Assembly: GCA_020725315.1 (NCBI GenBank)
Contig: DYFG01000001.1
Coordinates: forward strand, 17,015 to 81,014
Source of the DNA: Nitrosotalea sp.
Lineage (GTDB): Archaea; Halobacteriota; Syntropharchaeia; Alkanophagales; Methanospirareceae
Reading direction: 5' to 3'
Length of the DNA: 64,000 nt
The first letter of the stretch is position 1. Every line of letters starts with the position of its first letter. The position numbers were made by a program, and so were the translations under genes. Of this stretch, positions 26,808 to 60,054 are shown piece by piece. The notes beneath the pieces are model-generated. The model saw nothing but the letters and a program-made list of their open reading frames with translations, searched no databases and was not told where the DNA came from.

Positions 26808-27068
26808 ATGCCCACCCTTTACTACCATCCCCGCCGAGGGGGAAAGGCGACGAAAGTGGCAGCAAACAGACTGGCAGTATTGGACACCATTCGAGAGCGC
26901 ACAGAAGCAGAGACACCGCCGGAATGGATCAAGCCGCTGCTGATCATTGAGGCGCTGGTGACTGAGATTGACGCGCTCAAATCTGAGATCGAACTGCTGC
27001 GTGCCGAACTGGGCAACCGTCCCGCCGAGGGCGCCAAGCCTGCGGACGTGTGGCCTGACCGCTGGTAG
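26808..27068 (+). CDS. hypothetical protein (GC-rich island; start taken at the ATG 9 nt after RBS TAGGAGA)
   Basis: 86 aa with C-terminal coiled coil EIDALKSEIELLRAEL. Confidence 0.35.
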   Translation: MPTLYYHPRRGGKATKVAANRLAVLDTIRERTEAETPPEWIKPLLIIEALVTEIDALKSEIELLRAELGNRPAEGAKPADVWPDRW

Positions 27069-27119
27069 CCGCATCTGTGCACAGTTCACACACAGCGCCC
27101 CGGTGTGTGCCGGGGCGCG
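27069..27119 (+). repeat. copy 1 of a repeated roughly 50-nt element: CCGCATCTGTGCACAGTT plus GC-rich hairpin
   Basis: Palindromic core CTGTGCACAG, then a 9-bp stem GCGCCCCGG/CCGGGGCGC at 27095-27118. It abuts the stop codon of the preceding ORF. Confidence 0.45.
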
Positions 27120-27146
27120 TCACTTATCAGAATAGGAGTACTAAAC

Positions 27147-27644
27147 ATGAAAGGACTGGAGATGAAAAAGTACCAGCTTCGGCGGGCAATTCGGCAGACC
27201 TGCATTCTTTCGCCACCGCCGCCCCACAGCGAAACGGAGAAATACGACGCTTGGACGCTAGGGCGGCTGATCGACTACACAGCGAAGGAACTTGAGAAGC
27301 AGTTGCCCGCCTACGTCCGCAAGATGGAGTCGGTTGCTCATCCCGATCCGTCTCGCCCGCTGGTTGTCATGCCGCGAACTACATCCGCCATCCCGCTCAC
27401 CGCCGACGGATCGCCTGCCTTTCCCGAACCAGAACGGATACGCCGATACGACACGGTGCTGCCGAAACGGTTTGTTGTACGCTCCGGGGATGGCCCGGCG
27501 CTCAATGTCTTCATCGGCTATTCATCGCTCATGGAGACGGTCTACTTCTTTCGCGTCAAACGGTTACTCGACGAGGCGACGATCCGCCGCCCAACATGGA
27601 AGGGGCGCAAAACACCCCTCAACCGCGAACTGCCCTACGCCTGA
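27147..27644 (+). CDS. hypothetical protein (GC-rich island)
   Basis: About 165 aa from the ATG at 27147 (RBS AGGAG). No motifs. Confidence 0.4.
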   Translation: MKGLEMKKYQLRRAIRQTCILSPPPPHSETEKYDAWTLGRLIDYTAKELEKQLPAYVRKMESVAHPDPSRPLVVMPRTTSAIPLTADGSPAFPEPERIRRYDTVLPKRFVVRSGDGPALNVFIGYSSLMETVYFFRVKRLLDEATIRRPTWKGRKTPLNRELPYA

Positions 27645-27697
27645 CCGCATCTGTAAACAGTTGCCAGATAGAGCGCCCCAACCGGGGCGCTTTTTGC
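27645..27697 (+). terminator. copy 2 of the repeated element (CCGCATCTGTAAACAGTT) plus a rho-independent terminator
   Basis: Stem AGCGCCCC (27672-27679), loop AACC, GGGGCGCT, then TTTTT at 27691-27695. Confidence 0.55.
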
Positions 27698-27752
27698 TTA
27701 TGCGAATCGACCGTTGCAAAACCCACCAGTCTCTTATGAGTGATGTCATCAG

Positions 27753-30155: not shown

Positions 30156-30207
30156 ATCGTCACCTCGCCCTCGCCTTTATTCGTTATGAGAATGGTCATT
30201 CTAAACA

Positions 30208-34445: not shown

Positions 34446-35178
34446 GAACTTCTACCTTACTAAATGTATATGGGCTTTCTGCTTCATGATCTAAACAAAC
34501 AACACAATTTTCCGCCGAAGGATTTACGTTCCAATAAACGTAATAATTATCCTCATCTTCATCTACTTCCAACCAGCATTTGCACAACGATTTTCCAAGA
34601 CAGTCGTCACCTGGGAGATAAGGCATCATAAAAGTAATATCGACAGGAATAGTGCCCGCTATAAACGGTGCTCTGGCATACCCATACAGAGAAGAACGCC
34701 ACTGTAGACGACCACTATAAATTACTCCGCTAGACAACGCCTCACGAATGTCTGCCTCAAATCCATCGAAGTATTCATATTCCCTCTCTAAACGCTGTTC
34801 TAAGATTTCCCTGTGCCGTTCAGTAAATTCCTCTCCTTGCAAACCCAACAGCATAAGATCAGAAAAATGGATACGCAGACGATCTCTAAACCGCTCCGAA
34901 AATTCCCTTATTGATAAGGCTCCCGACAAAACAGCGACCAGCAATTCCTGAAATTCTTGGGATGCCTCTTCACAAAGTTCTTCGTATTCCTGTTCGTCCC
35001 GCTCATCATACTGCTTCTTTCCTTTACCAGCAGCATGTATGCACGCGAAAATAGCCTCTTCTTCAGACCCGCCATCTCTCAAAACCGCATTAGCGGCTCT
35101 GATACAACGTTTCTTTTCTGAGACTGTCCAATTCTTAGCAACTTTTGGCACGTAATTGGGATAACGATAGGGACTCAT
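34429..35178 (-). CDS. hypothetical head morphogenesis protein with C-terminal Cys cluster
   Basis: 249 aa, directly after portal. C-terminal CxxC...C..C (CLGKSLCKCW ... CVVC). Confidence 0.3.
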   Translation of the reverse strand: MSPYRYPNYVPKVAKNWTVSEKKRCIRAANAVLRDGGSEEEAIFACIHAAGKGKKQYDERDEQEYEELCEEASQEFQELLVAVLSGALSIREFSERFRDRLRIHFSDLMLLGLQGEEFTERHREILEQRLEREYEYFDGFEADIREALSSGVIYSGRLQWRSSLYGYARAPFIAGTIPVDITFMMPYLPGDDCLGKSLCKCWLEVDEDEDNYYVYWNVNPSAENCVVCLDHEAESPYTFSKVEVHGLTT

Positions 35179-37736
35179 TTCGTAACCAACTCACTTACTA
35201 TCCTACGCGCTTCTTGTATGTCTTTAGCAGTTATTTTTTTGTAGCCCTTCCTCTCAGTATGAGAATCAATGCCACCAACAATCTGATCTGTTCCAAAGGT
35301 AATTTCACTCGGCTGCTCCGTAGGCTGCGAAGATAAACGAGATTCGATCTCAGGTATCATCCATTCTGGTATATCACCTGACTCAACCGCCAACTGCCTT
35401 GCAGCAATCGCATCAATCTCTCCACTACGAACTAACAAAGCACGTTCTTTAGCTCTAATAAATCTCGCCTCTGCCCGTTCCCTGTCAGACCGAATATCCT
35501 GTTCCTTAAACTCAAACCGAACATTATAAGGAAGATGAGAATTTATCTTATCTTCCAACATCGTCATAATCAGGGCAGGGCCTTTACCCCTCGTCTTGAG
35601 ATGGAGAATTTCAGACTGTCCAGATGATCCAAGATTACCGGACATGAGTGGGGCAAACTCTTGATAATCCACACCAAAAGCAAGCGCCAACTGTGCTATA
35701 TACCATTTAAAGGTTGTGTCTTCGTTAAACGAATCTGGTAATGTTGCCAGATCAATGTGAACGTGACTGAGTGGGTGAGTAGGATCAACCCCAGGAATAA
35801 TCACTGGTTGCGAAAAACGATATAAACCACGATTAAGGTTTTGTTCTTCTGCCAGCAACACCGCATCATCAATGTTTGATTTTGATACGCCACCGATAAT
35901 ATCAATGGCGCGAGTAAAGTTGCCGCCTACCTTTTCTTTCTTATAGATGGAAATGTCTCTAAGAATTTGGGCGGCGAGTAGGGCACGGGATGTAGCACAA
36001 TATTGCATGCCATACATTTCTTCGATGGGAGAAGGAAACTCTTCTAACGTTTCTACTCTCCACCAGGGCATTGCATGCTCTCTACCATAAAAGTCTCTAT
36101 AAATAACTGGATATTCTGGATCACCAGTTCGCCAACAACGTCCTGAGTCCAGGTGTGCAAAATTAATCACAGGAGAAGTAGGGTTATTATTATCAACCCT
36201 AATAATTTCCCAAAAGGCGCCATTATCCTGTGTGTTGTGAGAAACAAGATTTCCAGCAATAAAATTGCGAGTTTTGTCTACTCCAATATGATAGGTGGTT
36301 TCTACAACCTTCCCGGTTGCTCCTATATAGTCTTTCTGTTCTATTTTTTCAATTTCATCAAAGTAGATTTTTGCAGGTTCCAACTCCCACACAGAAGGAT
36401 TAAATGGTTTTGTGTGTTGTCCCATCTTATACTGCATAGACGGAATTATATATTCGCTGATATAGGACACCACTGCACGATAACCATCGGCAGTGAAACG
36501 AATCCTATAATACTTGTCCTTTATCGGTTGCACCTTACAAGAAAAACCACGCGAGGTAAGTTCCTCAGCAAGCCATTCAACATCTTCTTTTTCAAATCCA
36601 TCTGTGCATAAAACAGCGTGTTCTGATTGATTGTTTGCTGTGGTAAGTGTTCTCTGGCACGCCCCGTCATCCATAAACCATATTGCAAGCATACGGGGAG
36701 AGAAGTATTTCACAAAGTCTTCCCTATTAACTCGCTTCTTCCCGTCTGGATACCATCTATCAAACCAAGGAGATAGCCCCAAAGAAGCTAGCGAGTTTAC
36801 TCCTATGATGTGTGCTCCTTTTTCTGTGAGCCTAGAATTTTGCCCTGTCCAACCAAACTCTTTTAACAAAGACTTCTTAAATTCTAGATAATCAGACTGA
36901 TCAACAGAGTGTCTAAAGCGGATAATTGCTCTCTTGGTAAAACGAGACATACTCATATCCCCAAGCAACCCGCCCACAAGTACCTCTGCCTGTTCTTCTG
37001 AAGGAACAAGATCAGAAGTACCTATCTTATCAGTAGGTAGCAAGTCTTTAGCTTGTACCCAACCACGATCAGTTAGCATGGGATGATCTTCAGTTAAAAA
37101 GATTCCTCCTTGCTTTCCTCCATGACCATGATTAGTTGCTAGTTTAGTAGACAGGAAATACCATTTACGATTCCCTAGTGGCGTAGAATGCCATTCAGTA
37201 ACCATCTGTTCTACCAAAGTTCCGTCAGAACCAACGCTAATCACAGGACCAGGATCACGATCCTTTACCATTCTTGCTATCGTCTTTGTTTTTCCTAGTC
37301 GATCCCCCCCTAGCTTAACTTTAGTATTACCAGCCAAGCAATAGAGGTCAATACAAGTTTTAAGAATTAAATCGTACCACCCCTTACCACGATTTGATCG
37401 CTGGATAATCTCAGTAACCTTGTTAATTGTATTTTTAGGTCGCGGTTTAGTCTTGTCTGTGCCTTCAATATGCCACGCAAAACTGGCGTTACGAATTGAA
37501 ACACCATAAACCGCGCTTGCCAAAAGGGACTCTGTGTGCCAAAATTCCCGTAATTCCCTATCTCGTTTAACAGGATCTTTGCCCCAGGGCGTAATTGAAT
37601 CGGCAGTTGTCGCCAGTTGTAAAATCAAGGGGCCAACACGCGGCGTCCTGTTATTAGGCGGCGTCTCAACAACAGAGTTTTCAAAAAGCTCTGGTAACAA
37701 TTCTTTTTCTTCTACAAAATCACTACCGACTGCCAT
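35175..37736 (-). CDS. portal protein interrupted by an intein
   Basis: 853-aa gene immediately downstream of, and overlapping, the large terminase gene. The roughly 484-aa extein is portal-sized. The intein is at residues 133-501. Confidence 0.6.
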   Translation of the reverse strand: MAVGSDFVEEKELLPELFENSVVETPPNNRTPRVGPLILQLATTADSITPWGKDPVKRDRELREFWHTESLLASAVYGVSIRNASFAWHIEGTDKTKPRPKNTINKVTEIIQRSNRGKGWYDLILKTCIDLYCLAGNTKVKLGGDRLGKTKTIARMVKDRDPGPVISVGSDGTLVEQMVTEWHSTPLGNRKWYFLSTKLATNHGHGGKQGGIFLTEDHPMLTDRGWVQAKDLLPTDKIGTSDLVPSEEQAEVLVGGLLGDMSMSRFTKRAIIRFRHSVDQSDYLEFKKSLLKEFGWTGQNSRLTEKGAHIIGVNSLASLGLSPWFDRWYPDGKKRVNREDFVKYFSPRMLAIWFMDDGACQRTLTTANNQSEHAVLCTDGFEKEDVEWLAEELTSRGFSCKVQPIKDKYYRIRFTADGYRAVVSYISEYIIPSMQYKMGQHTKPFNPSVWELEPAKIYFDEIEKIEQKDYIGATGKVVETTYHIGVDKTRNFIAGNLVSHNTQDNGAFWEIIRVDNNNPTSPVINFAHLDSGRCWRTGDPEYPVIYRDFYGREHAMPWWRVETLEEFPSPIEEMYGMQYCATSRALLAAQILRDISIYKKEKVGGNFTRAIDIIGGVSKSNIDDAVLLAEEQNLNRGLYRFSQPVIIPGVDPTHPLSHVHIDLATLPDSFNEDTTFKWYIAQLALAFGVDYQEFAPLMSGNLGSSGQSEILHLKTRGKGPALIMTMLEDKINSHLPYNVRFEFKEQDIRSDRERAEARFIRAKERALLVRSGEIDAIAARQLAVESGDIPEWMIPEIESRLSSQPTEQPSEITFGTDQIVGGIDSHTERKGYKKITAKDIQEARRIVSELVTK
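36234..37340 (-). mobile_element. intein with LAGLIDADG homing endonuclease in the portal gene
   Basis: Block A CLAGNTKVKL. Ends NLVSHN with +1 Thr. Motifs LVGGLLGDMSMS and MLAIWFMDDGACQ. Confidence 0.55.
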
Positions 37737-40476
37737 TTATGTATTTCTCCCCCAACTCAGGGAATTTCTGCCGGACTATTTGTGAGAAGGTTTCCAACTC
37801 AATTTCACCCTTTGCTAACATCTGTAGTAAATCTTCCTTCTCAAATTCCCGATTGTCTAATTCCAATTCCATACATTTGTAAGCAGCCATCGACAAAGCA
37901 ACTGCCGCGTCAATCTTGGCTTCTGGTGACAGCTTTTCTAGGCGTCTTTGCCGTCCCGAAATTACTGCCCCGGCTTGCCGAATATGCTGATATAGCGTAT
38001 CTTCTTCTCTCCCAGGACCCCCCACATCCCCGATTGTAGTGGTTCGATTCCAAGTCAGTTGTCGGTGCATCACCATGTCATAAAGCTGTTTGTCAGCAAT
38101 ACCTCGCGCCGTATTTTGAGTGAAAGGATCGAACCAACCAAACCCATCCTTACGATAGTCTTGAACAAGTTTTGCCATCTGGTACGGATCATAAACCCAA
38201 CATATAACATTCCATCGGGAAGCCCATTCACGAATGGTATTACCAACTGTCTGTTCTTGGTCTATGTTACCACCTAACTTTTTAGGATTAAAAATCTTTA
38301 CAGCCCGAACCGCAACACAAGTATCAGGGTTGATTGGATCGCGAGTTACAGCAACCATCGCCGCTAAGTCATTTGATACACTCATATCTATTGCAACCAC
38401 AACAGGAGTCTTATCTCCCTGCTTAAGAACGGGCAAAGAAGGACTTTCACAATTATCCCACCATTGAGCCTCGATAAACGCACCCTTCGCACTCACCCAA
38501 CGATTACGATGGATACGTTCAAACTCCTCTGGTTCTAAGGTATTTTTCTGTTCTTCATAGTAATTAGTACCTAATTGCCAGGGCATCCGAGGTTCGGTGT
38601 CCCAATACATAAACATACGAGAAGGCGCATGAGTATAAACCACTGGACCTTCTTCAGTATCAAGATAGGAAAAATCTGGATGGGGAGTTCCTTCTTTCTT
38701 TCCTGTGTTATAAAGAGATTCTAAAAGAATGGACACTCCGGTATATCCTGCATAGGATTCAACCCACTGCATTGCATATCCGTACAAAGTGGGCGGAACC
38801 GTAAGTTCTGTCCATAGCTGGCGTTTCTTAGGTGTATCAAATCCCCACAACTCACTGTTGCCCTGGATATGTACTTTTCCGTGTCGTCTAACTACTACAG
38901 TTTTGTTAGGTACTGTAGGACAGTGGATAATCCCTTCATAGTCTATCTTTTGCCAACGATCTTTTTTAATGTGAAGTATACGGCTCCCATCCCCCATTGG
39001 CTTAACACTAACTGAATATAAAGGCCTTCCCCATCGCCTATCTTGATAGGTAGTTACTGTTACATATCTGCCCCGCCTAGCATAAATTTCTAACAAATCG
39101 TCTCGCAATTTAGGAGAGTTTGTGCTATAAACAATATGCCCGTATTGAGTTACAGCATCACCAGTCTTGTATCCATCCCCACGCCAATAAGACTCTAATA
39201 ACACGTCTAAATATTCATCTGGAAGTTCTTTAATCCATGCCGGTATATACTTTTCGTGTGCCAGCCCAAATTGCTTTAAATGTTTCGCTATACGAGTATC
39301 ATAAAACACTAAAGCATCTGTACCCTTCCACACACGCGGAACATATCCGAGATCGGAGATTAGCGTTTTCAATTCTTCGTAATAAGGAGATACACTGCTC
39401 TGTGCTAACAACACGGTATCGCCCTTATGGGTACATCCCTCAGACAAATACCACCCCAAAAACTTAAGGTACAGTTTTACAGGAATCTCAAGACTCGGCC
39501 TACGCTTAGTGCCTGGAATAGTCACAAATTCTGGTACATCTACTGGTTTCCTTTTTAGTCCCAAAGATTCTACTCGCATACCATACACCCCGGCTTCTAT
39601 GGCGGATTCTACGGAGCGCTTTTCAAATTGGGCTTTATTAAGGGCTATAGAACTAGAACCAAATTTACCATACAGCCTATGATTAGGAGACACGCACAAA
39701 CTGTATCTGCTAGATTCTAATAGATACATAGGGCCTCCATACTGTGAGACATTTATATGAGTGGGATGTTGGTACTCTAGATACCCATCCGAACGTAAAG
39801 TTAAAAACTGATCATCCATAGAATATTGATCATAGCGTTTCCACCCATCCCTAGTAAGTATCTCTGTGTCTTCGTCAAAACAAAAGACACTTAGCGTAGG
39901 TTCACCACCAGCCTCACCTGCCGCGTCAACCGGAACAGCCTCAATCTTACAAAAATTAGGAAGGGTAACCTCGTATTCATACGGGTTTATATCCTTAAAG
40001 GGGCCTTGTTGCTGTCTATGGAGTCTATAATTTTGTTTTATAGGCGCATAGATACGGTCGTTCGCCTGTTTACCATCGTTTGCTACACACGCAATAAACC
40101 CATAAGGACTATGATGAGCCACATAAGTAGCTACTGCCGCAGCAACCGCAGACTTTCCGCTTTTCTTTGGGGCACTATAAACTACCAAAGCATACTTAAA
40201 TGTCCCATCAGGATTCCGTGATAGGGCTTCATTAATCAAATGCTTTTGGTGATCGGTTAATTGAATCGGGCCAGCGGGAAGTATTTCGCCAGTCTTAGGG
40301 TTTCGAGGTCGAGGTACCCAAAAATATCGTTCAATCCAATCAGCCGGAAGAATTGCTTCCTGATTCTGTTCTTGCACTAAGTTGCGTGACAACTGCCGTA
40401 GTGCCTGATCCAGCAGCGTCTTCGAGTCGCCTTGAGATGTAATCGACAACTGCTTCCCTAACGTGTGCATCATCAA
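37723..40476 (-). CDS. terminase large subunit interrupted by an intein at the Walker B region
   Basis: Walker A VVYSAPKKSGKSAVAAAV. The intein starts at C199 (TLSVF then CFDEDTEILTRDGW). 917 aa including a roughly 342-aa intein. Lies upstream of portal. Confidence 0.8.
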   Translation of the reverse strand: MMMHTLGKQLSITSQGDSKTLLDQALRQLSRNLVQEQNQEAILPADWIERYFWVPRPRNPKTGEILPAGPIQLTDHQKHLINEALSRNPDGTFKYALVVYSAPKKSGKSAVAAAVATYVAHHSPYGFIACVANDGKQANDRIYAPIKQNYRLHRQQQGPFKDINPYEYEVTLPNFCKIEAVPVDAAGEAGGEPTLSVFCFDEDTEILTRDGWKRYDQYSMDDQFLTLRSDGYLEYQHPTHINVSQYGGPMYLLESSRYSLCVSPNHRLYGKFGSSSIALNKAQFEKRSVESAIEAGVYGMRVESLGLKRKPVDVPEFVTIPGTKRRPSLEIPVKLYLKFLGWYLSEGCTHKGDTVLLAQSSVSPYYEELKTLISDLGYVPRVWKGTDALVFYDTRIAKHLKQFGLAHEKYIPAWIKELPDEYLDVLLESYWRGDGYKTGDAVTQYGHIVYSTNSPKLRDDLLEIYARRGRYVTVTTYQDRRWGRPLYSVSVKPMGDGSRILHIKKDRWQKIDYEGIIHCPTVPNKTVVVRRHGKVHIQGNSELWGFDTPKKRQLWTELTVPPTLYGYAMQWVESYAGYTGVSILLESLYNTGKKEGTPHPDFSYLDTEEGPVVYTHAPSRMFMYWDTEPRMPWQLGTNYYEEQKNTLEPEEFERIHRNRWVSAKGAFIEAQWWDNCESPSLPVLKQGDKTPVVVAIDMSVSNDLAAMVAVTRDPINPDTCVAVRAVKIFNPKKLGGNIDQEQTVGNTIREWASRWNVICWVYDPYQMAKLVQDYRKDGFGWFDPFTQNTARGIADKQLYDMVMHRQLTWNRTTTIGDVGGPGREEDTLYQHIRQAGAVISGRQRRLEKLSPEAKIDAAVALSMAAYKCMELELDNREFEKEDLLQMLAKGEIELETFSQIVRQKFPELGEKYINGSR
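38857..39882 (-). mobile_element. intein in the terminase large subunit gene (homing-endonuclease-like insert; non-canonical C-terminal GN-S junction inferred)
   Basis: Block A CFDEDTEILT. Candidate end VHIQGN then Ser. Internal LKFLGWYLSEG and WRGDGYKTGD motifs. The exact C-terminal boundary is uncertain. Confidence 0.45.
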
Positions 40477-42645: not shown

Positions 42646-43095
42646 CTATAGGTTTTTATTATCCAGACGTTCCCTAACGACCCGCGAGACTTCCCTACGA
42701 ACTACAGCATCAACCACATCAACATCAACCTCTGGCTTTGTAGGAATTACTTCCTGATAACGGGTTCCGCTCGGTGGTCGTTCAGTCCATGAGTCGATGA
42801 CTTTCATTGCAACTAGCAACGAGATGATCCAAGGGACCAGCGTTTCCATCAAAAGCGCAATAGCAGCACCATCATCACCAGCAAGCTCACGGATACGAGC
42901 AAGAGTTTCCTCTTCTACTCCAAACACGCCTAGCAAAGACAAGATCACCACCGATGCCCCCGCCCAAAAGCGACGGTCAATCAAAACAGACCCTAGTTTG
43001 TTAATAAAAATCGTCAAACGTTCTTTCGTACTCATTTCTCTACTCCAAAGCTCTGTACAATAATCGAAAATCGTTCTAGTTGATCCATTAACCAA
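42646..43095 (-). CDS. membrane protein (2 TM), possible holin-like
   Basis: 149 aa with WAGASVVILSLLGVFGV and PWIISLLVAMKVI. The holin suggestion is speculative. Confidence 0.3.
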   Translation of the reverse strand: MVNGSTRTIFDYCTELWSREMSTKERLTIFINKLGSVLIDRRFWAGASVVILSLLGVFGVEEETLARIRELAGDDGAAIALLMETLVPWIISLLVAMKVIDSWTERPPSGTRYQEVIPTKPEVDVDVVDAVVRREVSRVVRERLDNKNL

Positions 43096-43448
43096 TGCAC
43101 CGCATCAGACTTTTGGTCAAAGCTTTCTTCTTCGTAGTGCATCACATACTGGTATATCCCTGCTATAGAATACTGCCCATAGTAACTCCCCTGAACACCT
43201 TCCTCTTCAAGCAGCGCATCTAGTACAGATGATTCTACAGCAAACCTCTCGCTAGATAAAAACGAGCCTGAAGGCGGAGACTTGTCCGGCTCAATGTAGT
43301 ACAAACCCCCATCCGGCAAAGTTTTAGGATTCTGCCATACTAATTCAGCAGAAGTATTATTAATCACATACGCAAGTTGTTCTTCAAAATTCATAAGGCT
43401 GATGCCTCTTCTTTTTCTATCAAAATTGTCGTGTGACATATCCTGCAC
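43032..43448 (-). CDS. hypothetical protein
   Basis: 138-aa ORF adjacent to the IS insertion. Confidence 0.3.
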   Translation of the reverse strand: MQDMSHDNFDRKRRGISLMNFEEQLAYVINNTSAELVWQNPKTLPDGGLYYIEPDKSPPSGSFLSSERFAVESSVLDALLEEEGVQGSYYGQYSIAGIYQYVMHYEEESFDQKSDAVHWLMDQLERFSIIVQSFGVEK

Positions 43449-44780
43449 GGTGACTGCTCCCCACGGCTAAAGCCGGGGGCTTCTAGGACCGGAGTCCAGG
43501 CTCGCCAGCCCGCGAGCCAAAATGTTCAGAGATGCATTGAGATCGCGGTCCAGTTTCAGGCCGCAGTAAGGACAGTCGTGGACACGCACACTCAAGTCTT
43601 TCGGAACCACCGCGCCGCAGCCGGAGCATTCTTGCGTTGTGCCTCTGGGGTTAACGCGCAGCACAGCACGACCGGCACTTTCAGCCTTGTACGTGGTGAA
43701 CTGCACGAACTGGCCCCAGGCCACGTCCGCGATATTCCGGTTGACAACCCGGTTTCCGTTGGACTGCATGTCCGCGATGTCCAACTTCTCAAAGACGATC
43801 AGGCCGAAGCGGTTGACGAGCTTGCGGCTCTCCTGGTGCGCGAAGTCGGCGCGCCGGTTGGTGGCGCGCTGGTAGGCATGGTTGAGCGCGCGCAGCACCT
43901 TGCGGCGCTCCGGCGAGCCTTTAGCGAACTGTTCTTTCTTGCGCTGCAAGCGGGCGATGTCCGCCGCATCGCGTTTCATCCAGCACTGGCGCGGGATACT
44001 GTCGCCGGTACTCAGCATGGCGAACGTCTTCAGGCCGAGATCCACGCCCACCACTTCAGGCGACGGGGGCAGAGGCGCGGCGTCTACTTCGCACGAAAAG
44101 CAGGCGTACCAGTTGCCTACGCTATCGCGCCGGATGATGACTGTTTTGGGTGTGCCTTCCAGGGGGCGATGCAGCTTGATTTTCACGGCTCCGATTTTCG
44201 AGAGCGTGAGCCGGTTACCGTCCAACTTCACCCCATTACCACACTGCGGATAGGTGAAACTGTCGTACCAGCCACGTCCCTTGAAGCGCGGGTAGCCGGG
44301 CTTCTCACCTGCCTTGACGCGGCGAAAGAATGCCTGGAACGCCAGATCGACGCGTGTGCACGCTTCTTGAAGCGACTGCGAAAAGGCGTTATTGAGAAAT
44401 GGCTGCTCGGCTTTCCAGCCGGGGATCAGCTTAATCGTATCGAAGCGCGTCAGCGTTTCGCGGTTAATGTCCCAGGCATCGCGGCGCACTTCAAGCGTCG
44501 TGTTGTAAACCCACCGACAAGCATCCAATGCGCGCAGCAAGGCGGTGCGTTGGGCAGAAGTAGGAAAGAGGCGGTACTTGTAGGTCAATCGCATAGCCCG
44601 ATTATACCATTTATGCTACAGGTTCACAAACATATGGCGCACCTTATATCCCCCTGCCTTCAGGCAGAGGTTTTACGGCGCTTTTCCGATAAAGCTGAGT
44701 TCTCCCCAGGAGCATCATCACAACACGCCCAACAGGAAGCCCCACACACCGGACACTCTTCTACCACATCACAACTCAAC
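43440..44780 (-). mobile_element. IS200/IS605-family insertion carrying only tnpB (IS1341-like), GC-rich
   Basis: GC is about 60% or more against a roughly 45% backbone. Right-end hairpin near 43455-43480 (GGCTAAAGCCGGGGGCTTC). Left-end-side hairpin CCTGCCTTCAGGCAGAGG near 44655. Confidence 0.65.
43467..44594 (-). CDS. tnpB: TnpB (OrfB_IS605) RNA-guided endonuclease-family transposase accessory protein
   Basis: N-terminus MRLTYKYRLFPTSAQRTALLRALDACRWVYN. C-terminal zinc finger CSGCGAVVPKD...CPYCGLKLDRDLNASLNI. Confidence 0.9.
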   Translation of the reverse strand: MRLTYKYRLFPTSAQRTALLRALDACRWVYNTTLEVRRDAWDINRETLTRFDTIKLIPGWKAEQPFLNNAFSQSLQEACTRVDLAFQAFFRRVKAGEKPGYPRFKGRGWYDSFTYPQCGNGVKLDGNRLTLSKIGAVKIKLHRPLEGTPKTVIIRRDSVGNWYACFSCEVDAAPLPPSPEVVGVDLGLKTFAMLSTGDSIPRQCWMKRDAADIARLQRKKEQFAKGSPERRKVLRALNHAYQRATNRRADFAHQESRKLVNRFGLIVFEKLDIADMQSNGNRVVNRNIADVAWGQFVQFTTYKAESAGRAVLRVNPRGTTQECSGCGAVVPKDLSVRVHDCPYCGLKLDRDLNASLNILARGLASLDSGPRSPRL

Positions 44781-45185
44781 ACTAACATTAATATTCCCTA
44801 GATAATTTCGATTGTACATATCCTGCAACAACCGCATACCAAAATACATTACCGCAAGTCTTGATAGAGTCAAATCTACCAAAACCTCGTTATTCACGTC
44901 CATAAGAATGACATTGAACGTCTCCAACGAGTTGTGCCAGATAACGAGACGGTTTAGCGCGTCTCCCTCCCGAACAACTGTTTTCCCCTCAACGTGCGCA
45001 AGTGCAGCAGCAATAATTTTGACAACGAACCCCAACAAGCGTTCAGGTTCAATGTACAGCGTCTTTTCTAGCTTTCCTTCTGGCACCAGATACAGATGCA
45101 ACCCGCCCATATTAGGATCAAACCGATACTGCAATGTGTCTGCAATTTTAGTTTTATTCTGTCTGCTAGCCGTAGTAACAATCAT
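44769..45185 (-). CDS. hypothetical early protein
   Basis: 138-aa ORF in the leftward early operon. Confidence 0.3.
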   Translation of the reverse strand: MIVTTASRQNKTKIADTLQYRFDPNMGGLHLYLVPEGKLEKTLYIEPERLLGFVVKIIAAALAHVEGKTVVREGDALNRLVIWHNSLETFNVILMDVNNEVLVDLTLSRLAVMYFGMRLLQDMYNRNYLGNINVSVEL

Positions 45186-49516: not shown

Positions 49517-49988
49517 GCGCCTGCTCCTTTCGTAACCCGCGATGACACCGAGCGCGTTGCGGTGTAAAAAGAGAGTAGAAAAGCAAGCACTAGATTACGC
49601 ATATCAATAAGGAATTGTAGTCCTACATAAACCAAAGTAATAGCCATATATCCCCCATAAATAAGAAGAAATCAGAAACTATTCGAAAGATTAATCAGCA
49701 TATCCCAACTTAATTAACAAAAAAGCAAGGGCATATATAATCCCAAAAGCAGTCAAAAGCTCTAGCATAATGAGAGGAAAGCAAATAAACAAAACAATAA
49801 GACACAGAATACCGCCCACAAAGCAAGATACAAGAAGGGCCGAAAGAAAGTCGTTGTCTAACATCACACTCTCCTTTCTTACAAGTATACATTACAAGAG
49901 AAATAAAGTCAATAGACGATACAAGAGGGCCTACTAAGAAAAAGATAAGGGGTACATAAAAGAAAAGAGAGGAACGATATGGGTGGAT

Positions 49989-50018
49989 TAGTTAAGTTTA
50001 AGAGAAAAAAAAATAATT
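49989..50018. repeat. direct repeat copy A (TTAGTTAAGTTTAAGAGAAAAA..TAATTT) downstream of the 218-aa gene
   Basis: Near-identical to copy B at 50766-50794. Confidence 0.5.
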
Positions 50019-50674
50019 TAATGTACTTTACGTAATTTAACATATTTATGTTTGTAAAATTTTCCTACGGGGGTGAATCCTAAATCAAGCATGTTTTGAT
50101 GTGTGAGATTTACCTTACCCCGTTTACGGGTTTGGGAGATTCCATTTTTAGTATAAATCCATGTGGGTGTGGTTTTTCCTACGTAAGTCCAGCCTGAGCT
50201 TTTATAAACTTCTCCGGTATGTCCTTGCCATGTGTCCGCATACGTAACAAGACATTTCCACCTTGTATCTAACATTTTTATAGATTTACTCAGCATAAAG
50301 GACGCAGAGTTTTTAGGGGCAGAAGGAATCAAAACCATTCGTGAAAGAGAGAGAACACGATTAGGTTCTTCATAAGTAGCCTCTGCCGCACGCCGAGTAG
50401 GGGGCAACCACCAAGTTACTCCAAACAAAACATCAAACTCTTTATGAAACAATCCAAAACAAGCAACACACAGTTTACTAACACTTCTGGTATAGTGATG
50501 TTGAACTATAAGAGTTCTTCCTAATGAGGGATCAATAGGACGTACTTCCCAGGACTCTTTATGTAAGGGGCCTACAGGCAACATATTTTTCTCCTTTAAA
50601 ATTTCCAAGTAAATTTCTGAATATTTGGACTTTCTAGGTTCTGGTATATCTTCCTTGTTAATAATGGTAATCAT
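50018..50674 (-). CDS. hypothetical protein (QHHYTRS ... TYADTWQGHTGEVYKSSGW)
   Basis: 218-aa ORF flanked by about 30-bp direct repeats. Function unknown. Confidence 0.4.
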   Translation of the reverse strand: MITIINKEDIPEPRKSKYSEIYLEILKEKNMLPVGPLHKESWEVRPIDPSLGRTLIVQHHYTRSVSKLCVACFGLFHKEFDVLFGVTWWLPPTRRAAEATYEEPNRVLSLSRMVLIPSAPKNSASFMLSKSIKMLDTRWKCLVTYADTWQGHTGEVYKSSGWTYVGKTTPTWIYTKNGISQTRKRGKVNLTHQNMLDLGFTPVGKFYKHKYVKLRKVH

Positions 50675-50765
50675 TGTTTTTTTTTTCTACAGAAACGATA
50701 TTTATCAATATAGCACAGTACAATAAGAATGTCAATAATCAGGCGGTTTAAGTATGACTGAGGGT

Positions 50766-50794
50766 TAGTTAAGTTTAAGAGAAAAATAATTTCA
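50766..50794. repeat. direct repeat copy B (TTAGTTAAGTTTAAGAGAAAAATAATTT) upstream of the 218-aa gene
   Basis: Pairs with copy A at 49989-50018. Confidence 0.5.
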
Positions 50795-51017
50795 AAAAAA
50801 TTTTTTGTATAAAAATTGTCCAGCGCGCACATCACCGCCGCGAAACCGAACGCGGCTGGCGGGTTCGTTAGCTATTAGCACTAAGACTACAGTTACCATA
50901 ATATGCCGTGTTCAGTTTAGAGTTAACTAAGAGTACAGACACCGTTATACTACCTCTTAAAAACCTATCCACACGTTCCCTAGAATCATAATTTTAGGAA
51001 GTGCTAACCGGGAGATG

Positions 51018-51270
51018 GAATTTAGGAACACCTAAAATAAAAATTAGGCAGACCAAAATAAAAATTAGGCAGACCTAAAATAAAACTTAGGATAATCTTA
51101 TAACTAATTTTGGTCTGATCCAATCAGAAGCTTTCGGCGCGCCGAATTGTCGCAAGTCTGTTTAATGCTCTATTTTCTTATTTTCTGCCATATTCCCTAA
51201 CTTGATTTTTAGGTTTGCCTAATCCTCTTATTGGCTATTCCCTCATTTGATTCTTAGGTTTGCCTAATCT
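51018..51270. repeat. iteron-like array around a palindrome. About three direct copies of AAAATAAAAATTAGGCAGACC at 51033-51097; a 14-bp perfect palindrome TTCGGCGCGCCGAA at 51133-51146; two inverted copies TTTTTAGGTTTGCCTAAT at 51205-51268
   Basis: Seen directly. The arrangement looks like a replication origin, partition site or multi-operator region. Confidence 0.55.
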
Positions 51271-51510
51271 TTAATACCTTATTATATTGCCAGTCTTTGG
51301 ATAGTTCACATGTGAACAGTATACATATACTCTATATCTCTATAAGGTTTAATTGGTTTAGATATAAACGATCTTATCGCGCTTTGGCGTTACAATCTGG
51401 CTATTATCACGAGTCTTTATTTTCGAGAATAGGTTACGCTTTAACGCGGATAAAATCCTATTATCGATCCTGTGTTTTAACATTCGCAATTTTTGGGAAT
51501 GGAGCAAATT

Positions 51511-51587
51511 AGAATGTTAAAAAAGTTTGAATCTGCTAACCTTTGAGGGAAAAACGAATGTTAAAATGGTTTGAATCTGGTTAGAAT
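51511..51587. repeat. two copies of an about 30-nt repeat, GAATGTTAAAA(A/T)GTTTGAATCTG(C/G)TTA, spaced 44 bp
   Basis: AGAATGTTAAAAAAGTTTGAATCTGCTAAC and CGAATGTTAAAATGGTTTGAATCTGGTTAG. Confidence 0.5.
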
Positions 51588-51599
51588 ATCTGTAAGATA

Positions 51600-52560
51600 C
51601 TTGAACACCTAGCTAAATCTGTGATAGGATGTAAGCGCAATTGAGCAAGCGCACATTAAAAATAGCGCCGGCGCGAAAGTCTGGGGCGATGCAGGAAGCG
51701 CCAAGAGATGAGCTTACCCTCAGGCGAGTAGCAATGACGCAATACGCATACGCAACCTTCGGGGGGCTTTCGTCTAGCCAACGAAAGCTGAGCCGTACGG
51801 GGGCTGTAGGAAACTAGTAGACTCGTCCAACCTGAGATCGCACGAGTCTAGAGTAAATCCTAATGGTTGGGGGCCGGGCGGCCCCTCGCTACTAACTGGA
51901 TCCCATTAGCCTTACTCTACTAGCCAAGTGAGCAGATAGCCATATCTGTTATGTCACGCTTGGCTAGCCTAGTTTCCGGCGGCGCAAGCGATTAGAGACC
52001 TCTCTAATACGCACGCGCACCTATAGCACGGCAAACCAAGCGCTGAAAACCTGTTAGGTCGATGAAAGCATACTACACTAGCCAATAGCAGAAGTCTAGA
52101 CAAACAGCCTAGAATCGGCGGGATCGAAAGTAGCCTAATCAATGGCTAGCCTAGCCGATAGTGCATACTGGTGAAAGCGATGACAATGCTAGCTAGTGCA
52201 AGTGCCTAAACGCTGACAGTGATTAATCTAAGTGCGATGCTAAGCCTGGCTATAGTTGTTTTGCTTGTTTTCCCCAACACTCCTCGCAGATAAACCGTAC
52301 CGCACGATATTAGATGATCAATTGCTTAACTCCCGGCGGCTAGGTTATAGGCTATCCTATACCCCAGTCTAAGGGACCAAGTTAGGCATGAGAGACTCTA
52401 TTATCTGGTATAGTCGACTCTGTTAGGTTATGCTAGGCCAAAGCTTAGCTGATCCGCTATAGTGGGATAGCACACTAGGATTAGTTAGGCTAGGCTAGTA
52501 TCTCCCATATCTTATAGTGCCGATAAAATAGGTTATCGGCACTTAGGCTATAGGAGACCA
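51600..52560. other. ORF-free, hairpin-dense, CTAG-rich noncoding region (candidate large structured ncRNA or cis-acting DNA element)
   Basis: No ORF of 60 aa or more in any frame across 51513-52547. 19 CTAG tetramers counted in 51601-52500. Many perfect short hairpins, for example GTGCCGATAA-AATAGG-TTATCGGCAC near 52517-52544 and CTAGACTCGT..ACGAGTCTAG near 51817-51850. Confidence 0.3.
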
Positions 52561-52584
52561 TAACCATACAAAGGAGAAAGGGCG

Positions 52585-52824
52585 ATGAAGCTACAGAAGG
52601 TACAGAAGCTACTGACGGGCGAGTACCGGGAATTGTACGGGGGGCATGGTGTGTGGTGGGTATCCGTGAGGTGGGAAGAGGGGCGGCTCATCAGTGAGTG
52701 GTGGGCAGACGGATTACCGGCGGTGAGCAGACCGGTGACTAAGGCTGAGGGCGCGGATGATGTGGAGAGGATAATTCGGTCGGTGTGCGCAGACTTCCGC
52801 AAGGTGCGGGGTCTGGCTTGGTAG
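52585..52824 (+). CDS. hypothetical Trp-rich protein (GC-rich)
   Basis: 79 aa, RBS AAGGAGAAAGGG, GC about 58%. Confidence 0.35.
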   Translation: MKLQKVQKLLTGEYRELYGGHGVWWVSVRWEEGRLISEWWADGLPAVSRPVTKAEGADDVERIIRSVCADFRKVRGLAW

Positions 52825-53107: not shown

Positions 53108-53115
53108 GGCAGTTA

Positions 53116-53141
53116 AGGCGTACAAGCGATCTTGTACGCCT
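53116..53141 (+). terminator. hairpin AGGCGTACAAG-CGAT-CTTGTACGCCT, putative terminator or attenuator
   Basis: 11-bp perfect stem. The 3' tail is only moderately T-rich. Confidence 0.4.
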
Positions 53142-53185
53142 TATAGTGTTCTAATCCCATAAGGGATCAAATAGGAGACTATGCT

Positions 53186-57268: not shown

Positions 57269-58192
57269 ATGCCTAAGAAAAATTCGGTTGAACGGCGTAT
57301 CCTAGACACACTGATTAAAGCAGTCGAGTCTAGCGGATTGCTGCCCTGGCAACGTCCGTGGGTTGTTGCCCATCCTATCAATCTTGTGACATACAATGCT
57401 CACAAGTCCGAAGGCACACCGGAAGAAGTGTGTATTAAATACGGTTATAAGGGTATTAATCCCCTGCTCCTGTCACTGTCTGAATTTTCCAGCCCCTTTT
57501 GGTTTACCTACAAACAGGCTACCGATTTGGGGTGGCAAATCCGCAAAGGTGAGAAGTCTTCTTTCATCGTTTACTGGAACATTTTTGAGAAGACTGTCAC
57601 CGATGATGACGGGGATGATCGTATCGTTAAAATCCCGTTCCTTCGGTATTATAACCTGTTTAACGTAGAGCAGGCCGATCCTGCTGAGGGTAAAGAACCT
57701 GCCCCTATTCCTACGATTACAGATATTGATAAGACAGACCGCAAGCGTGATGATATTAAAGAACTACTTACAGCGTCATGGCTTGCGCCTACTACCTTTA
57801 AGGGTACACAAGCAGCGTACATCCCATCACAAGATCGGATCGTGATGCCCCCAGTGGATGCTTTTAAATCCTATGCTCATTTTTATTCGACGTGGGCGCA
57901 TGAGGCAGTGCATAGTACCGGACACATCGACCGACTAGGGCGAGAGGGTGTTGTTAATCCTTCATTGTTTGGTAGTGAGAAATATGGGTTTGAAGAGTTG
58001 ATCGCGTGTGTTGGTCAAGCGATGTTCTGTGCACGAGTCGGTGTGCAGAATGAGGACATGAATAAAAACGACGCAGCGTATCTCAAAAACTGGTTGCAAG
58101 TATTGAAAGATGATCCCCGCATGATCGTAAGGGCTGGATCACAAGCGCAACGTGCAATTGATTTTATCTTCGGTGACGACTCTCCCCGCTAA
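57269..58192 (+). CDS. ardC: ArdC-like antirestriction protein (ssDNA-binding N-domain plus zincin-like metalloprotease motif)
   Basis: C-terminal STWAHEAVHSTGH, matching the HExxH...TGH signature of ArdC/DUF1738. Start at the ATG after AAGGAG. 307 aa. Confidence 0.7.
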   Translation: MPKKNSVERRILDTLIKAVESSGLLPWQRPWVVAHPINLVTYNAHKSEGTPEEVCIKYGYKGINPLLLSLSEFSSPFWFTYKQATDLGWQIRKGEKSSFIVYWNIFEKTVTDDDGDDRIVKIPFLRYYNLFNVEQADPAEGKEPAPIPTITDIDKTDRKRDDIKELLTASWLAPTTFKGTQAAYIPSQDRIVMPPVDAFKSYAHFYSTWAHEAVHSTGHIDRLGREGVVNPSLFGSEKYGFEELIACVGQAMFCARVGVQNEDMNKNDAAYLKNWLQVLKDDPRMIVRAGSQAQRAIDFIFGDDSPR

Positions 58193-59790
58193 AGCTAAAG
58201 CGGGGAGCTTCCCAGGGCACGCTCGCCGCAACCGGCCACGTTACGCTCTGGCGGCCCCGTCCGGGCCGGGTTGACCGCAAGCATCAGGATATTCCGAGGT
58301 TACACTGCCCATCACCGCGATCCATCCGTTGCAACAGCATCGCCGTTCTGAGCTTCGCGGGACACGTTTGACCCACTGGCCTGCGTTTCGTCCCGCGCGC
58401 CCGGTACAGGCGCTTTCAACCCTAAGCGAAGGATGTTCTTCGCTGCGTTCACGTCGGCGTTTTCTTCATGCCCGCACGAAAGACACCGGAACCGCGCTTG
58501 TGTTTTACGATTTTCGGCGTCCACTACGCCGCACTCGGAGCACGTTTGACTCGTGTACGCTGGCGGCACCTTGACCAACTGGACGCCGCGCTCGGCACAC
58601 TTGTATTCGAGCAGTTGCCAGAAGGTCGCAAAGCCGGCATCGTGCGCGCTCATGGCGAGACGCTTGTTTTCGATCATGAAGTCCAGCGTCAGATCTTCGA
58701 TGGCGATCAGCCCGTAGGTGCTCGTGAGCCAGTCGGTGACGGTGTGCCAGAAATACCACCGCTGTTGTCTGATTCGGTCCTCCAGCTTGCGCAACTGGCG
58801 CTCGGTTTCCTGCATGCGCGTGGACTTGTGCCAGATGAACACGCCGGGTTTGGGCGTGCCGTCCGCATTGTAGTTCTGCGGGTTGTTGGCGCGGCGCTGG
58901 CGGTCCAGCTTGCGCATAAGCACGCGGCGCTTCTGCTGCCCTTCCCGATACCAGCGCGGGTTATCAATGGTCGTGCCGTCGCTGAGCGCCAGCAGGTAGA
59001 CCATGCCCACGTCAATGCCAACGGCGGGCTTCTGTGAAGGTTCCGGCTCGGCGTCGGGTATTTCAAGCTGGAGGGCGGCGTACCACTGGCCGCGCCGGTT
59101 GCGCAGCACGAGCACGTACTTGATGACGCTCAGGGGCGGCAGATCGCGGTGAAAGCGCAGACGGATGTCACCACAGTTGGCGATGCGCAGCTTAGCCCAC
59201 CCGTCCGACGTTTCGATGAGTTTGCACCCACTACCGTACTTGTAACCCAGGCTGCGGAAGTGGTAGCGCCCCTTGAAGCGCGGGAAGCCCGGTGTTTCGC
59301 CCGCCTTGACGCGGCGGAAGAACGCTTTATAGGCTTTGTCCAGGCGGCGCATAAGGTCATCTACCGTGTCATAGGGCAGCAGCCCGAACGTGTCCGGTTC
59401 CTCTTTGCGCAGTGCGCACCAGTGATCACGCAGGTCATACAGGCTGATGCTCTCGCCGCGTTCCTCATACGCTTCCTTGCGCATGGCGAGGGCACCGTTG
59501 TAGATTTTGCGCCCCTGCCACAGCAGGAAGTCGAACGTCCGCGCTTGCGCCCTCGTCGGATACAGCCGGTACTTGTACGTCCGAATCATCGCCGCCCCAG
59601 AACAGAACACCCCGCCGAAGATTGTGTGTTGTCTAGGCACACGCGCGCGGCAGGGTGTTCCGTCCACAATCATAACGCACGTATCATGCCTAGACAACAT
59701 TAGTATACCGCACATTCGTTCGCAAAGCAAAATCAGAAAGGAGGCAAGCGCCATTCCCAACCGGGCTAAAACCCGGTGTCCCCTGGCGCA
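58193..59790 (-). mobile_element. second IS200/IS605-family tnpB-only insertion, GC-rich, abutting the ardC stop
   Basis: Right-end hairpin CTCCCCGC-TAAAGCTAAA-GCGGGGAG spans the ardC stop (58180-58210). Left-end-side 11-bp inverted repeat TTGTCTAGGCA..TGCCTAGACAA at 59626-59697, and hairpin CCGGGCTAAAACCCGG at 59759-59775. GC is over 60%. Confidence 0.6.
58312..59589 (-). CDS. tnpB: TnpB (OrfB_IS605) RNA-guided endonuclease family (start at internal Met, MIRTYKYRLYPT)
   Basis: N-terminus MIRTYKYRLYPTRAQARTF. C-terminal zinc finger CSECGVVDAENR...CLSCGHEENADVNAAKNI. Listed ORF is 58312..59760. Confidence 0.85.
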   Translation of the reverse strand: MIRTYKYRLYPTRAQARTFDFLLWQGRKIYNGALAMRKEAYEERGESISLYDLRDHWCALRKEEPDTFGLLPYDTVDDLMRRLDKAYKAFFRRVKAGETPGFPRFKGRYHFRSLGYKYGSGCKLIETSDGWAKLRIANCGDIRLRFHRDLPPLSVIKYVLVLRNRRGQWYAALQLEIPDAEPEPSQKPAVGIDVGMVYLLALSDGTTIDNPRWYREGQQKRRVLMRKLDRQRRANNPQNYNADGTPKPGVFIWHKSTRMQETERQLRKLEDRIRQQRWYFWHTVTDWLTSTYGLIAIEDLTLDFMIENKRLAMSAHDAGFATFWQLLEYKCAERGVQLVKVPPAYTSQTCSECGVVDAENRKTQARFRCLSCGHEENADVNAAKNILRLGLKAPVPGARDETQASGSNVSREAQNGDAVATDGSR

Positions 59791-60054
59791 ATTTCGATGG
59801 GCACGTTAAGACATATGAGGATACAAGCGACAAAGAAGTTGAAGAATAGTTGCATGATATTCACAGATAAGAAAACAAAACTATCCGTTGACGTATCGCC
59901 TAAGCTGGCGCAGGCATATCATATCTTGCGCCAGCATAACAAATATTTGACTATCGTCTCGGAAAACTATATACTACCAGAAAAAACGGCGTATGATATG
60001 CTAGCATGTTTGGGGTATGAGTATGTAAATAATGGCTGGAATAGGTCGTCTTGA
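59776..60054 (+). CDS. hypothetical protein
   Basis: 92-aa ORF. The real start may be an internal Met. Confidence 0.3.
   Translation: MSPGAISMGTLRHMRIQATKKLKNSCMIFTDKKTKLSVDVSPKLAQAYHILRQHNKYLTIVSENYILPEKTAYDMLACLGYEYVNNGWNRSS

Follow-up and report, generated by a model that had tools for sequence, protein, structure and literature searches.

A candidate large, modular RNA ahead of a rightward gene block in an uncultivated tailed phage

Our analysis concerns a gene-free gap of 1.9 kb (50675-52584) between two divergent gene blocks in a 64,000-nucleotide (nt) stretch of contig DYFG01000001.1, hereafter the window, which makes up most of the ~82-kb genome of an uncultivated tailed phage. Within this gap, the segment from roughly 51605 to 52560 is probably a new, modular, structured leader or non-coding RNA of about 0.95 kb, read from the + strand. 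It belongs to no described family; its conserved 3' core is well supported, its centre is exchangeable, and its most likely role, judged from sequence and position, would be the control or protection of early expression. A preliminary description, made from the letters of the DNA, had singled out the region as free of open reading frames (ORFs), dense in hairpins and rich in CTAG, and had offered a large structured non-coding RNA as one explanation. This is still the best reading, as the 3' third and the centre found in relatives both covary; for the window's own centre we only infer it.

In the mechanism we propose, transcription would begin just after a conserved AT-rich repeat block (51475-51600), and the phage's early transcript, running rightward, would carry the structured RNA as its 5' leader, from which a stable non-coding RNA might also be processed. 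The same molecule would include the window's own centre (51745-52273), and the genes would follow without an intervening intrinsic terminator, no + strand terminator-like site having been found in 50500-52800. Early expression could then be controlled or protected by occluding translation of the first gene, by stabilizing or processing the transcript, or by binding a phage or host factor.

Conserved pairing in the 3' domain

The segment 52283-52505 is common to all the relatives of this phage that we recovered, and most share it through 52545. This 3' element is present in L005, L008, L011/L012, L009, L013, L014 and L015, and RNAalifold folds it into a consensus of three long hairpin domains and a terminal hairpin. 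Across the eight distinct sequences used for the pairing statistics, which have column identities of 77-91%, standard pairs occupy 97.9% of 535 cells, compared with 29-43% when the partners are slid by one to three columns. Thirteen pairs show double changes, against 3.9±1.5 in shuffled controls (0/500 reach this number). Seven of these stem from one event, in which L013 swapped the terminal hairpin for an unrelated hairpin at the same site, and without the replaced helix six double-change pairs are left against 2.6±1.0 (2/500), with a covariation score above all shuffles; the shuffle control ignores the phylogeny of the sequences. Comparative covariation had been proposed as a check in the preliminary description, and pairs are indeed kept by compensatory and wobble changes above the controls. 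Because G-U cells outnumber A-C cells in the element by 50 to 7 (an A-C cell being G-U on the opposite strand), we assign the RNA to the + strand. Fold z-scores are strongest for this 3' piece as well, with + strand values (window -6.7, L005 -9.3) beyond those of the - strand (-4.3 and -7.8). A covariance model built from the element detects it a single time at each locus and nowhere else in the window.

All features of the domain are given on the + strand. It is entered through a linker (CCCUCGCAGAUAAACC...GAUCAAU, 52278-52322) of highly conserved columns without conserved local pairing; a possible long-range partner, AUCUGUGA at 51617-51624, appears only in the minimum free energy (MFE) fold of the window. 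Hairpin domain A (helices 1-3, 52323-52388) has 96-100% of its cells paired and double changes at two pairs. Domain B (helix 4 with an invariant loop, 52389-52425) comprises 13 pairs with 97% of cells paired and only one-sided changes of the wobble type, and domain C (helices 5-8, 52426-52505), defined by RNAalifold and pair counts, presents the invariant loop GGGAUAGCAC. The clearest case of compensation is helix 7, in which three pairs have changed on both sides (U-A to A-U, G-C to C-G and C-G to U-A), and one pair of helix 8 carries a compensatory double change as well. The words that make up the helices vary together with their partners, GTTAGG for instance becoming ACTAAG, AGTTAG or GCTGAG. 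The loop sequence GGAUAGC of domain C (52465-52471) is complementary to an invariant GCUAUCC in domain A (52351-52357), which suggests a possible kissing contact. The terminal hairpin (helix 9, AGUGCCGAUAA/UUAUCGGCACU, 52516-52543), an inverted repeat, is the helix that was replaced in L013.

The domain also appears to be connected to the gene that follows. In predicted folds of the window, L005, L008, L011, L012 and L013, the UCUCC or UUUCC that closes domain C pairs with GGAGA across the terminal hairpin; in the window this Shine-Dalgarno-occluding helix lies at 52502-52556 on the + strand (UCUCC 52501-52505, GGAGA 52553-52557). An AUG is found 8-9 nt past GGAGA in the relatives. The window keeps the GGAG, but its first gene, an orphan of 79 amino acids (aa) directly downstream, starts at 52585 behind another AGGAG (52572-52576). 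The last helix of the RNA is predicted to contain, and to occlude, the first gene's ribosome-binding site. Since the first downstream gene varies among the relatives, and L009 and L015 are without the last, Shine-Dalgarno-pairing module, the RNA belongs to the operon and not to one gene. A T7-like promoter reading of CACTTAGGCTATAGGAGAC was dropped, because the motif is not repeated before other genes and contains the ribosome-binding site. Only two copies of the word CTTATAGTG exist in the window (53108-53145 and 52511-52551), each by a strong hairpin before a gene: AAGGCGTACAAG...CTTGTACGCCTT, which precedes a 109-aa gene, and the RNA's own terminal hairpin. The 53108-type hairpin comes directly after the RNA core in L009 and L015, and the word with its hairpin may be a shared processing or termination signal.

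The lineage is rare, with about ten metagenomic contigs and no cultured host. Exact copies of the region occur on several metagenomic contigs, and a second 82-kb contig differs by one single-nucleotide polymorphism in 7.9 kb, outside the region, with an invariant window-type centre. The diverged relatives (L005/L006, L008, L009, L011, L012, L013, L014 and L015; 80-90% identity) come from metagenomes and were reached by way of variant forms of two downstream proteins (109 aa and 121 aa), together with a DNA pattern in JGI metagenomes. No relatives were found in IMG/VR by DNA patterns and protein queries, the sole match (L001) being an unrelated high-GC phage, or in GTDB genomes by a DNA pattern and a protein profile, hence there is no clue to the host. 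Blastn and megablast of the region and the surrounding 24 kb against 50,697 phage records returned no similar phage. The RNA occurs once per genome and always heads the same gene block; distant homologues of the 109-aa protein, and of a Mom-like protein encoded left of the gap, stand in other contexts, and the RNA is not there.

An exchangeable centre

Upstream of the 3' domain the region is a mosaic. The window matches L005 to 51662 and resumes at 52274, matches L012 to 51744, and matches L015 from 52214. A 5' conserved block (CTTGAACACCTAGCTAAATCTGTGATAGGATGTAAGCGCAAT, 51590-51662, + strand) is common to the window and L005, with 42 nt identical though this relative is only about 81% identical overall, and L012 has other sequence in its place. 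The adjoining module (51663-51744, +) is common to L012 and not to L005, blastn aligning window 51504-51744 with L012 2-247 at 79.6% identity. Beyond it, L005, L008, L011 and L012 share a different centre of about 530 nt, in which 96.2% of the cells of 135 pairs are paired, 21 pairs show double changes against 9.7±1.9 in shuffles (0/500), and long-range helices (columns 463-678 and 488-644) carry compensatory changes; G-U cells number 42 and A-C cells 3. Because this centre, too, is supported by covariation and biased towards G-U, about 850 nt form a + strand RNA structure in the relatives. L005 carries a duplicated hairpin module that the other relatives are without.

The sole clear piece common to both types of centre is a mini-hairpin of 40 nt (GGCGCAAGCGAUUAGAGACCUCUCUAAUACGCA, 51981-52019, +), which blastn detects in L005, L008, L011 and L012 and which is paired in the relatives' RNAalifold consensus (columns 417-460); the matches between the centres are otherwise weak and non-colinear. 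Specific to the window is a four-way junction (51799-51983, +) on which the MFE and centroid folds agree, with the closing helix GGAAACUAG/CUAGUUUCC, three hairpins and six CTAGs. The stretch 51799-52020, in which the junction is joined by the mini-hairpin, has z-scores of -5.8 (+) and -6.0 (-), with none of 200 shuffles as stable. It is followed by a variable segment (52020-52273, +) that is the richest in CTAG (seven between 52078 and 52193), repeats CUAGCCAA and UGGCUAGCCUAG, shows weak, non-colinear similarity to an L005-type module and from 52214 is common to L015. Folded alone, 52017-52262 is not significantly structured (z -0.7 on the + strand, -1.2 on the - strand). The single copy of UUGGCUAG (51960) is complementary to the three copies of CUAGCCAA (51774, 51920 and 52078), the first of which lies in a hairpin loop, and this complementarity is confined to the window-specific centre. 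This centre is without a variant homologue, so that the RNA reading of it is inferred from thermodynamics; it is the weakest part of that reading and the site of most of the CTAGs.

As a whole, the region has the coding and folding properties first ascribed to it. Across 51513-52547 the longest ORFs are 58 aa (+) and 57 aa (-), none reaching 60 aa, and stops are dense in all six frames; a 71-aa ORF to the left (51297-51512) was rejected as coding on account of frameshifting indels in a relative. The fold of 51600-52570 is far more stable than those of shuffles (z -6.3 on the + strand, -6.6 on the - strand), and most helices of the window's MFE fold are local. Repeats are limited to scattered 11-19-nt words in two or three copies. 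Among the recurring pieces previously listed, GGCTAGCC is present twice and CTAGCCAA three times, and GCTAGCTAG is present but single. Most of the stems listed with them were recovered (CTTTCG/CGAAAG, GTGCCGATAA/TTATCGGCAC, and GGGGCC/GGCCCC with a loop of GGGC rather than GGG); the arm quoted as CTAGACTCGT is absent, the true arm being TAGACTCGT with the partner ACGAGTCTA. A TRAP-like array was rejected because the spacing of (G/U)AG is irregular, and a CRISPR, tandem or iteron array because 51600-52570 has no regularly spaced unit.

CTAG words and rival explanations

The count of 19 CTAG tetramers in 51601-52500 given in the preliminary description is exact, and its expectation of about four compares with 3.5 from base composition. 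Every other 900-nt stretch of the window has at most eight, and the observed/expected ratio is 5.5 in the region against 0.90 in the whole window. The enrichment is accordingly genuine and is not repeated elsewhere (0.9 outside the region); the idea that it stands out from a background avoiding this tetramer did not hold, the background being neutral and not depleted. Dinucleotide-preserving shuffles of the region contain 9.7±2.7 CTAGs and reach 19 once in 2000. TAG itself is present 47 times in 970 nt, a three-fold excess over the roughly 15 expected, and CTA 38 times. As the Markov (trinucleotide) expectation, CTA x TAG / TA, already gives 18.7, the true excess is one of TAG and CTA trinucleotides and of a few words. 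The hexamers GGCTAG/CTAGCC have 11 of their 30 window copies in the region, and TAGGCTA is over-represented too. Four helices of the MFE fold (+ strand) pair CUAG with CUAG (51814/51969, 51920/51964, 52078/52193 and 52433/52495), accounting for eight of the 19 copies, since a helix containing the self-complementary CUAG counts twice; more copies belong to duplicated words, namely CUAGCCAA (three copies), UGGCUAGCCUAG (two) and AGUCUAGA (two). The CTAG excess is a by-product of helix-forming words of the GGCUAG/CUAGCC type and of the duplication of several short CTAG-bearing words, a pattern that fits selection for RNA pairing and not an array of protein sites or a restriction decoy. The GC content is near 50%, as had been stated (48.8%, against 45.0% in the window). 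In Salmonella and E. coli, conserved CTAGs fall in ribosomal and transfer RNA (tRNA) genes and in intergenic stem-loops (PMC5337935). A local excess of CTAG and TAG in a CTAG-neutral genome can flag a structural-RNA gene.

Two further suggestions of the preliminary description, that the CTAGs are a protein-binding array or a decoy or target for a restriction system, are not borne out. Four of the five CTAGs in the conserved domain are invariant and lie in domain C (52433, 52475, 52490 and 52495), within helices whose neighbouring positions covary. The fifth site, 52340, reads CTAG in the window and L014 but TTAG in the other sequences, and its pair is maintained. This leans against an array, on which the four invariant sites do not decide; the CTAG-richest piece is the least structured and is specific to this phage. 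We give almost no credence to a role as decoy or target for restriction-modification or another defence system: the 5.5-fold local enrichment and the presence of Mom-like DNA-modification and ArdC-like anti-restriction genes nearby would suit it, but CTAG is neither avoided nor enriched in the remaining genome (0.90), which gives no hint that a CTAG-cutting enzyme exerts selection. Moreover, the relatives' centre has near-background CTAG (5 in 531 nt), the excess is accounted for as described above, and no CTAG-specific methylase or nuclease was identified. A broader DNA-level function, whether in replication (as an origin), in packaging or injection stop, or in binding a phage protein at arrayed palindromic sites, with the hairpins serving as dyad sites or cruciforms, strikes us as quite improbable. 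It would agree with the placement between divergent blocks and beside iteron-like repeats (50980-51280), with the many window hairpins that are perfect palindromes folding equally on both strands, and with the TTAGG and TAGGCTA words that recur here and in the iterons. Yet the variable helix positions of the conserved domain preserve pairing and not words, the G-U to A-C ratios of 50:7 and 42:3 would be meaningless for duplex DNA, and TAG is spaced without regular phasing. That the region is functionless, a decayed gene or inserted repeat junk such as foldback elements resembling miniature inverted-repeat transposable elements, is very hard to credit. In its favour, the centre is found in this phage alone and is in part without significant structure; against it, the rest of the window contains no second copy of any part of the region, the flanks match the coding genes in conservation and evolve under pairing constraint, and all six frames are densely stopped.

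An explanation that we regard as unlikely but deserving of attention is that the region is a string of independent small structured elements, such as processing hairpins of the RNase III type, stabilizers or small RNAs, which recombine as cassettes, leaving only the last ~230-290 nt as a conserved unit. The patchwork of sharing invites this view, with 51590-51662 shared with L005, 51663-51744 with L012 and everything from 52214 with L015, and with only the mini-hairpin in common between the shared pieces, as do the duplicated hairpin module peculiar to L005, the mostly local helices of the window, the missing conserved helix to close the region and the unstructured 52017-52262. It is opposed by the conserved long-range helices with compensatory changes in the relatives' centre, and by the observation that the whole stretch always occurs as one block without internal terminators. 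We acknowledge that a number of points weigh against a single large RNA. Modules are swapped, duplicated and reordered between relatives, which a string of independent elements fits equally, and neither the window's MFE fold nor the alignments contain a conserved long-range helix closing the whole RNA. The covariation comes from few, closely related sequences, with an effective sequence number of 0.82 in the covariance model. The strand is assigned from G-U versus A-C asymmetry and the transcript is predicted; the promoter candidate described below is a weak match that falls under the threshold of a consensus scan. Thirteen of the 19 CTAGs lie in the window's own centre (51745-52213), for which there is no variant homologue. 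Taken whole, this centre folds little better than chance on the + strand (z -1.3, compared with -3.5 on the - strand), and its best-folded part (51799-52020) folds equally well on both strands.

Known RNAs and the surrounding genome

To our knowledge, only a handful of bacterial and phage RNA classes longer than about 500 nt have been described, and each large class has revealed unexpected biology, such as RNA-only cages or membrane-bound ribonucleoproteins. The present RNA combines a covariation-supported core, a position at the head of a putative early operon with anti-restriction-type genes, and a centre naturally swapped between close relatives. It is thereby attractive for determining its structure and for asking what large phage leaders contribute to early timing, transcript protection and RNA-based immunity or anti-defence. 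A search of the whole window against Rfam 15 at gathering score gave no matches, and relaxing the E-value to 10 for 50900-52700 gave five at chance level (12-16 bits against thresholds of 38-211), to eukaryotic microRNA, long non-coding RNA and small nucleolar RNA families and one Staphylococcus small RNA family. The homologous region of L005, L008, L012, L014 and L015 had no credible match at E up to 1, the four sub-threshold matches in these relatives being to microRNA families or lying outside the region. ARAGORN found no tRNA and no transfer-messenger RNA gene in the window.

GOLLD and ROOL, which had been suggested at the outset, are often associated with tRNA genes in phage or prophage DNA. 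Because there is no Rfam match and no tRNA nearby, membership in GOLLD, ROOL, OLE, the introns or the guide RNAs was rejected; GOLLD, ROOL, OLE and HEARO have no covariance-model match in the window or in the five relatives. Group II introns usually encode a reverse transcriptase; for group I and II introns there is again no Rfam match, and the region lies between divergent operons, not inside a gene, and has no ORF of 60 aa or more. The omega RNAs of TnpB and IscB are found at the 3' end of tnpB or iscB and are co-transcribed with it; here more than 5.7 kb separates the region from the nearest TnpB genes (- strand, 58312-59760 and 43467-44594), and the stretch syntenic to the window's TnpB site is free of transposase-type genes in L007 and in L005, which carries the RNA. 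GOLLD and ROOL are large ornate RNAs, often borne by phages or prophages, that form RNA-only homo-oligomers by cryo-electron microscopy (PMC12286853). The present RNA resembles them in being phage-borne and non-coding, several hundred to ~900 nt long, rich in helices and of no known function. Unlike them, it is a predicted leader directly before an operon with a ribosome-binding site paired into its last helix, and unlike their conserved cores its centre is swapped between close relatives.

In function, the closest counterparts would be structured leaders of phage early transcripts and 5' untranslated regions (UTRs) that occlude a ribosome-binding site; in size, the large phage-borne RNAs. The antitermination RNAs of lambda nut and HK022 put and the RNase III hairpins of the T7 early leader are single or paired hairpins of tens of nt. 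The present RNA would share with them a place downstream of an early promoter region and before the first early genes, and probably an action in cis, but it is ~0.95 kb long, has at least nine conserved helices in its 3' domain and has no sequence or model similarity to them. With the translational operators, RNA thermometers and riboswitch platforms that occlude a Shine-Dalgarno sequence, it shares a predicted pairing of GGAG with an upstream CUCC or UUCC, seen in each relative that retains the terminal hairpin; in contrast to these UTRs, it matches no known aptamer or thermometer, its first downstream gene varies, and it is ten times their size. The CI RNA of P4 (seqA/seqC) and the c4 antisense immunity RNAs of P1 and P7 are cut from the leader of an early operon, in which short repeated words are complementary to a word inside a folded domain. 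The three copies of CUAGCCAA facing one UUGGCUAG recall this arrangement, as does a locus with no recognizable protein repressor beside it, a lead and not a result; the present RNA is, however, ten times larger, has no Rfam match and has its complementary words confined to the window-specific centre. It is conceivable, if doubtful, that the RNA represents a new large phage class in which a conserved 3' core carries an exchangeable, specificity-determining centre, with CUAGCCAA and UUGGCUAG acting on their own leader as an RNA switch or immunity determinant for the early operon. Such a switch would resemble P4 CI but be built on a far larger scaffold, possibly with the kissing contact between 52351-52357 and 52465-52471.

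The block 51508-51605, which leads into the structured part, is AT-rich and unstructured; the window, L005 and L012, the three sequences available for it, scarcely vary there. Three copies of CGAATGTTAAAA lie between 51475 and 51566, one inverted (51475-51486) and two direct (51511-51522 and 51555-51566), the direct copies each being within a 24-nt repeat, 44 nt apart; these repeats are candidate operator sites just upstream of the RNA. A low-confidence promoter candidate on the + strand, TTGAAT-16 nt-TAAGAT (51570-51597), was read from the sequence, and transcription may start near 51605, where the structured part begins. Two mini-ORFs, 51512-51544 (MLKKFESANL) and 51557-51583 (MLKWFESG), each stand behind GGAG/GAGGG and overlap the 24-nt direct repeats. 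They are more probably DNA repeats than leader peptides, since L005 and L012 do not conserve their lengths.

The iteron-like array further left (50980-51280) sets three direct 21-22-nt repeats, AAAATAAAAATTAGGCAGACC (51019-51091), against two inverted ones, TTAGGTTTGCCTAATC (51191-51269), around the GC palindrome TTCGGCGCGCCGAA (about 51133-51146), with one repeat missing in L005; the array is a candidate origin or operator region of divergent promoters. A strong leftward promoter match lies left of the structured part. A perfect 14-bp palindrome, GTTCACATGTGAAC (51306-51319), to the immediate right of a promoter-like TTGCCT-17-TATATT (51260-51288), may be an operator; L005 has a degenerate version of it (GTTCATATATAAAC). 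Leftward transcription off the gap would reach a 54-aa gene and then the Mom-like gene, and an exact 22-nt repeat (50765-50786 and 49988-50009) flanks this pair. The rightward block consists of small genes with no assigned function that run to the ArdC-like gene.

Other recognized genes of the window encode a DNA polymerase, with only about 26% identity to that of any deposited phage, a tyrosine integrase, a tape-measure protein, a large terminase, the Mom-like DNA-modification protein, the ArdC-like anti-restriction protein and two TnpB-type transposases. The TnpB gene at 58312-59760 (- strand; IS605 OrfB-type with a Cas12f1-like TNB domain), in a GC-rich island (58001-60000), separates the ArdC-like gene from the next conserved one and is a recent insertion, since L005 and L007 have small genes there instead. 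Its guide RNA would be expected just below 58312 on the - strand, where there is no Rfam match. The second transposase-family gene (PHROG 506, 43467-44594, - strand) also lies in a GC-rich island (43001-45000), the stretch around it having 53% GC against 45% for the window. Positions 27000-30200, at 55-57% GC, are compositionally foreign to the remaining phage, with no CTAG in 28001-30000, and contain an 800-aa ORF (27753-30155, -) with no PHROG match. Finally, an 853-aa protein (35175-37736, -) includes a LAGLIDADG homing-endonuclease segment, and in the neighbouring 917-aa large terminase (37723-40476, -) the terminase matches are interrupted by a foreign insert; from their sequences, both look like intein-containing structural or packaging genes.

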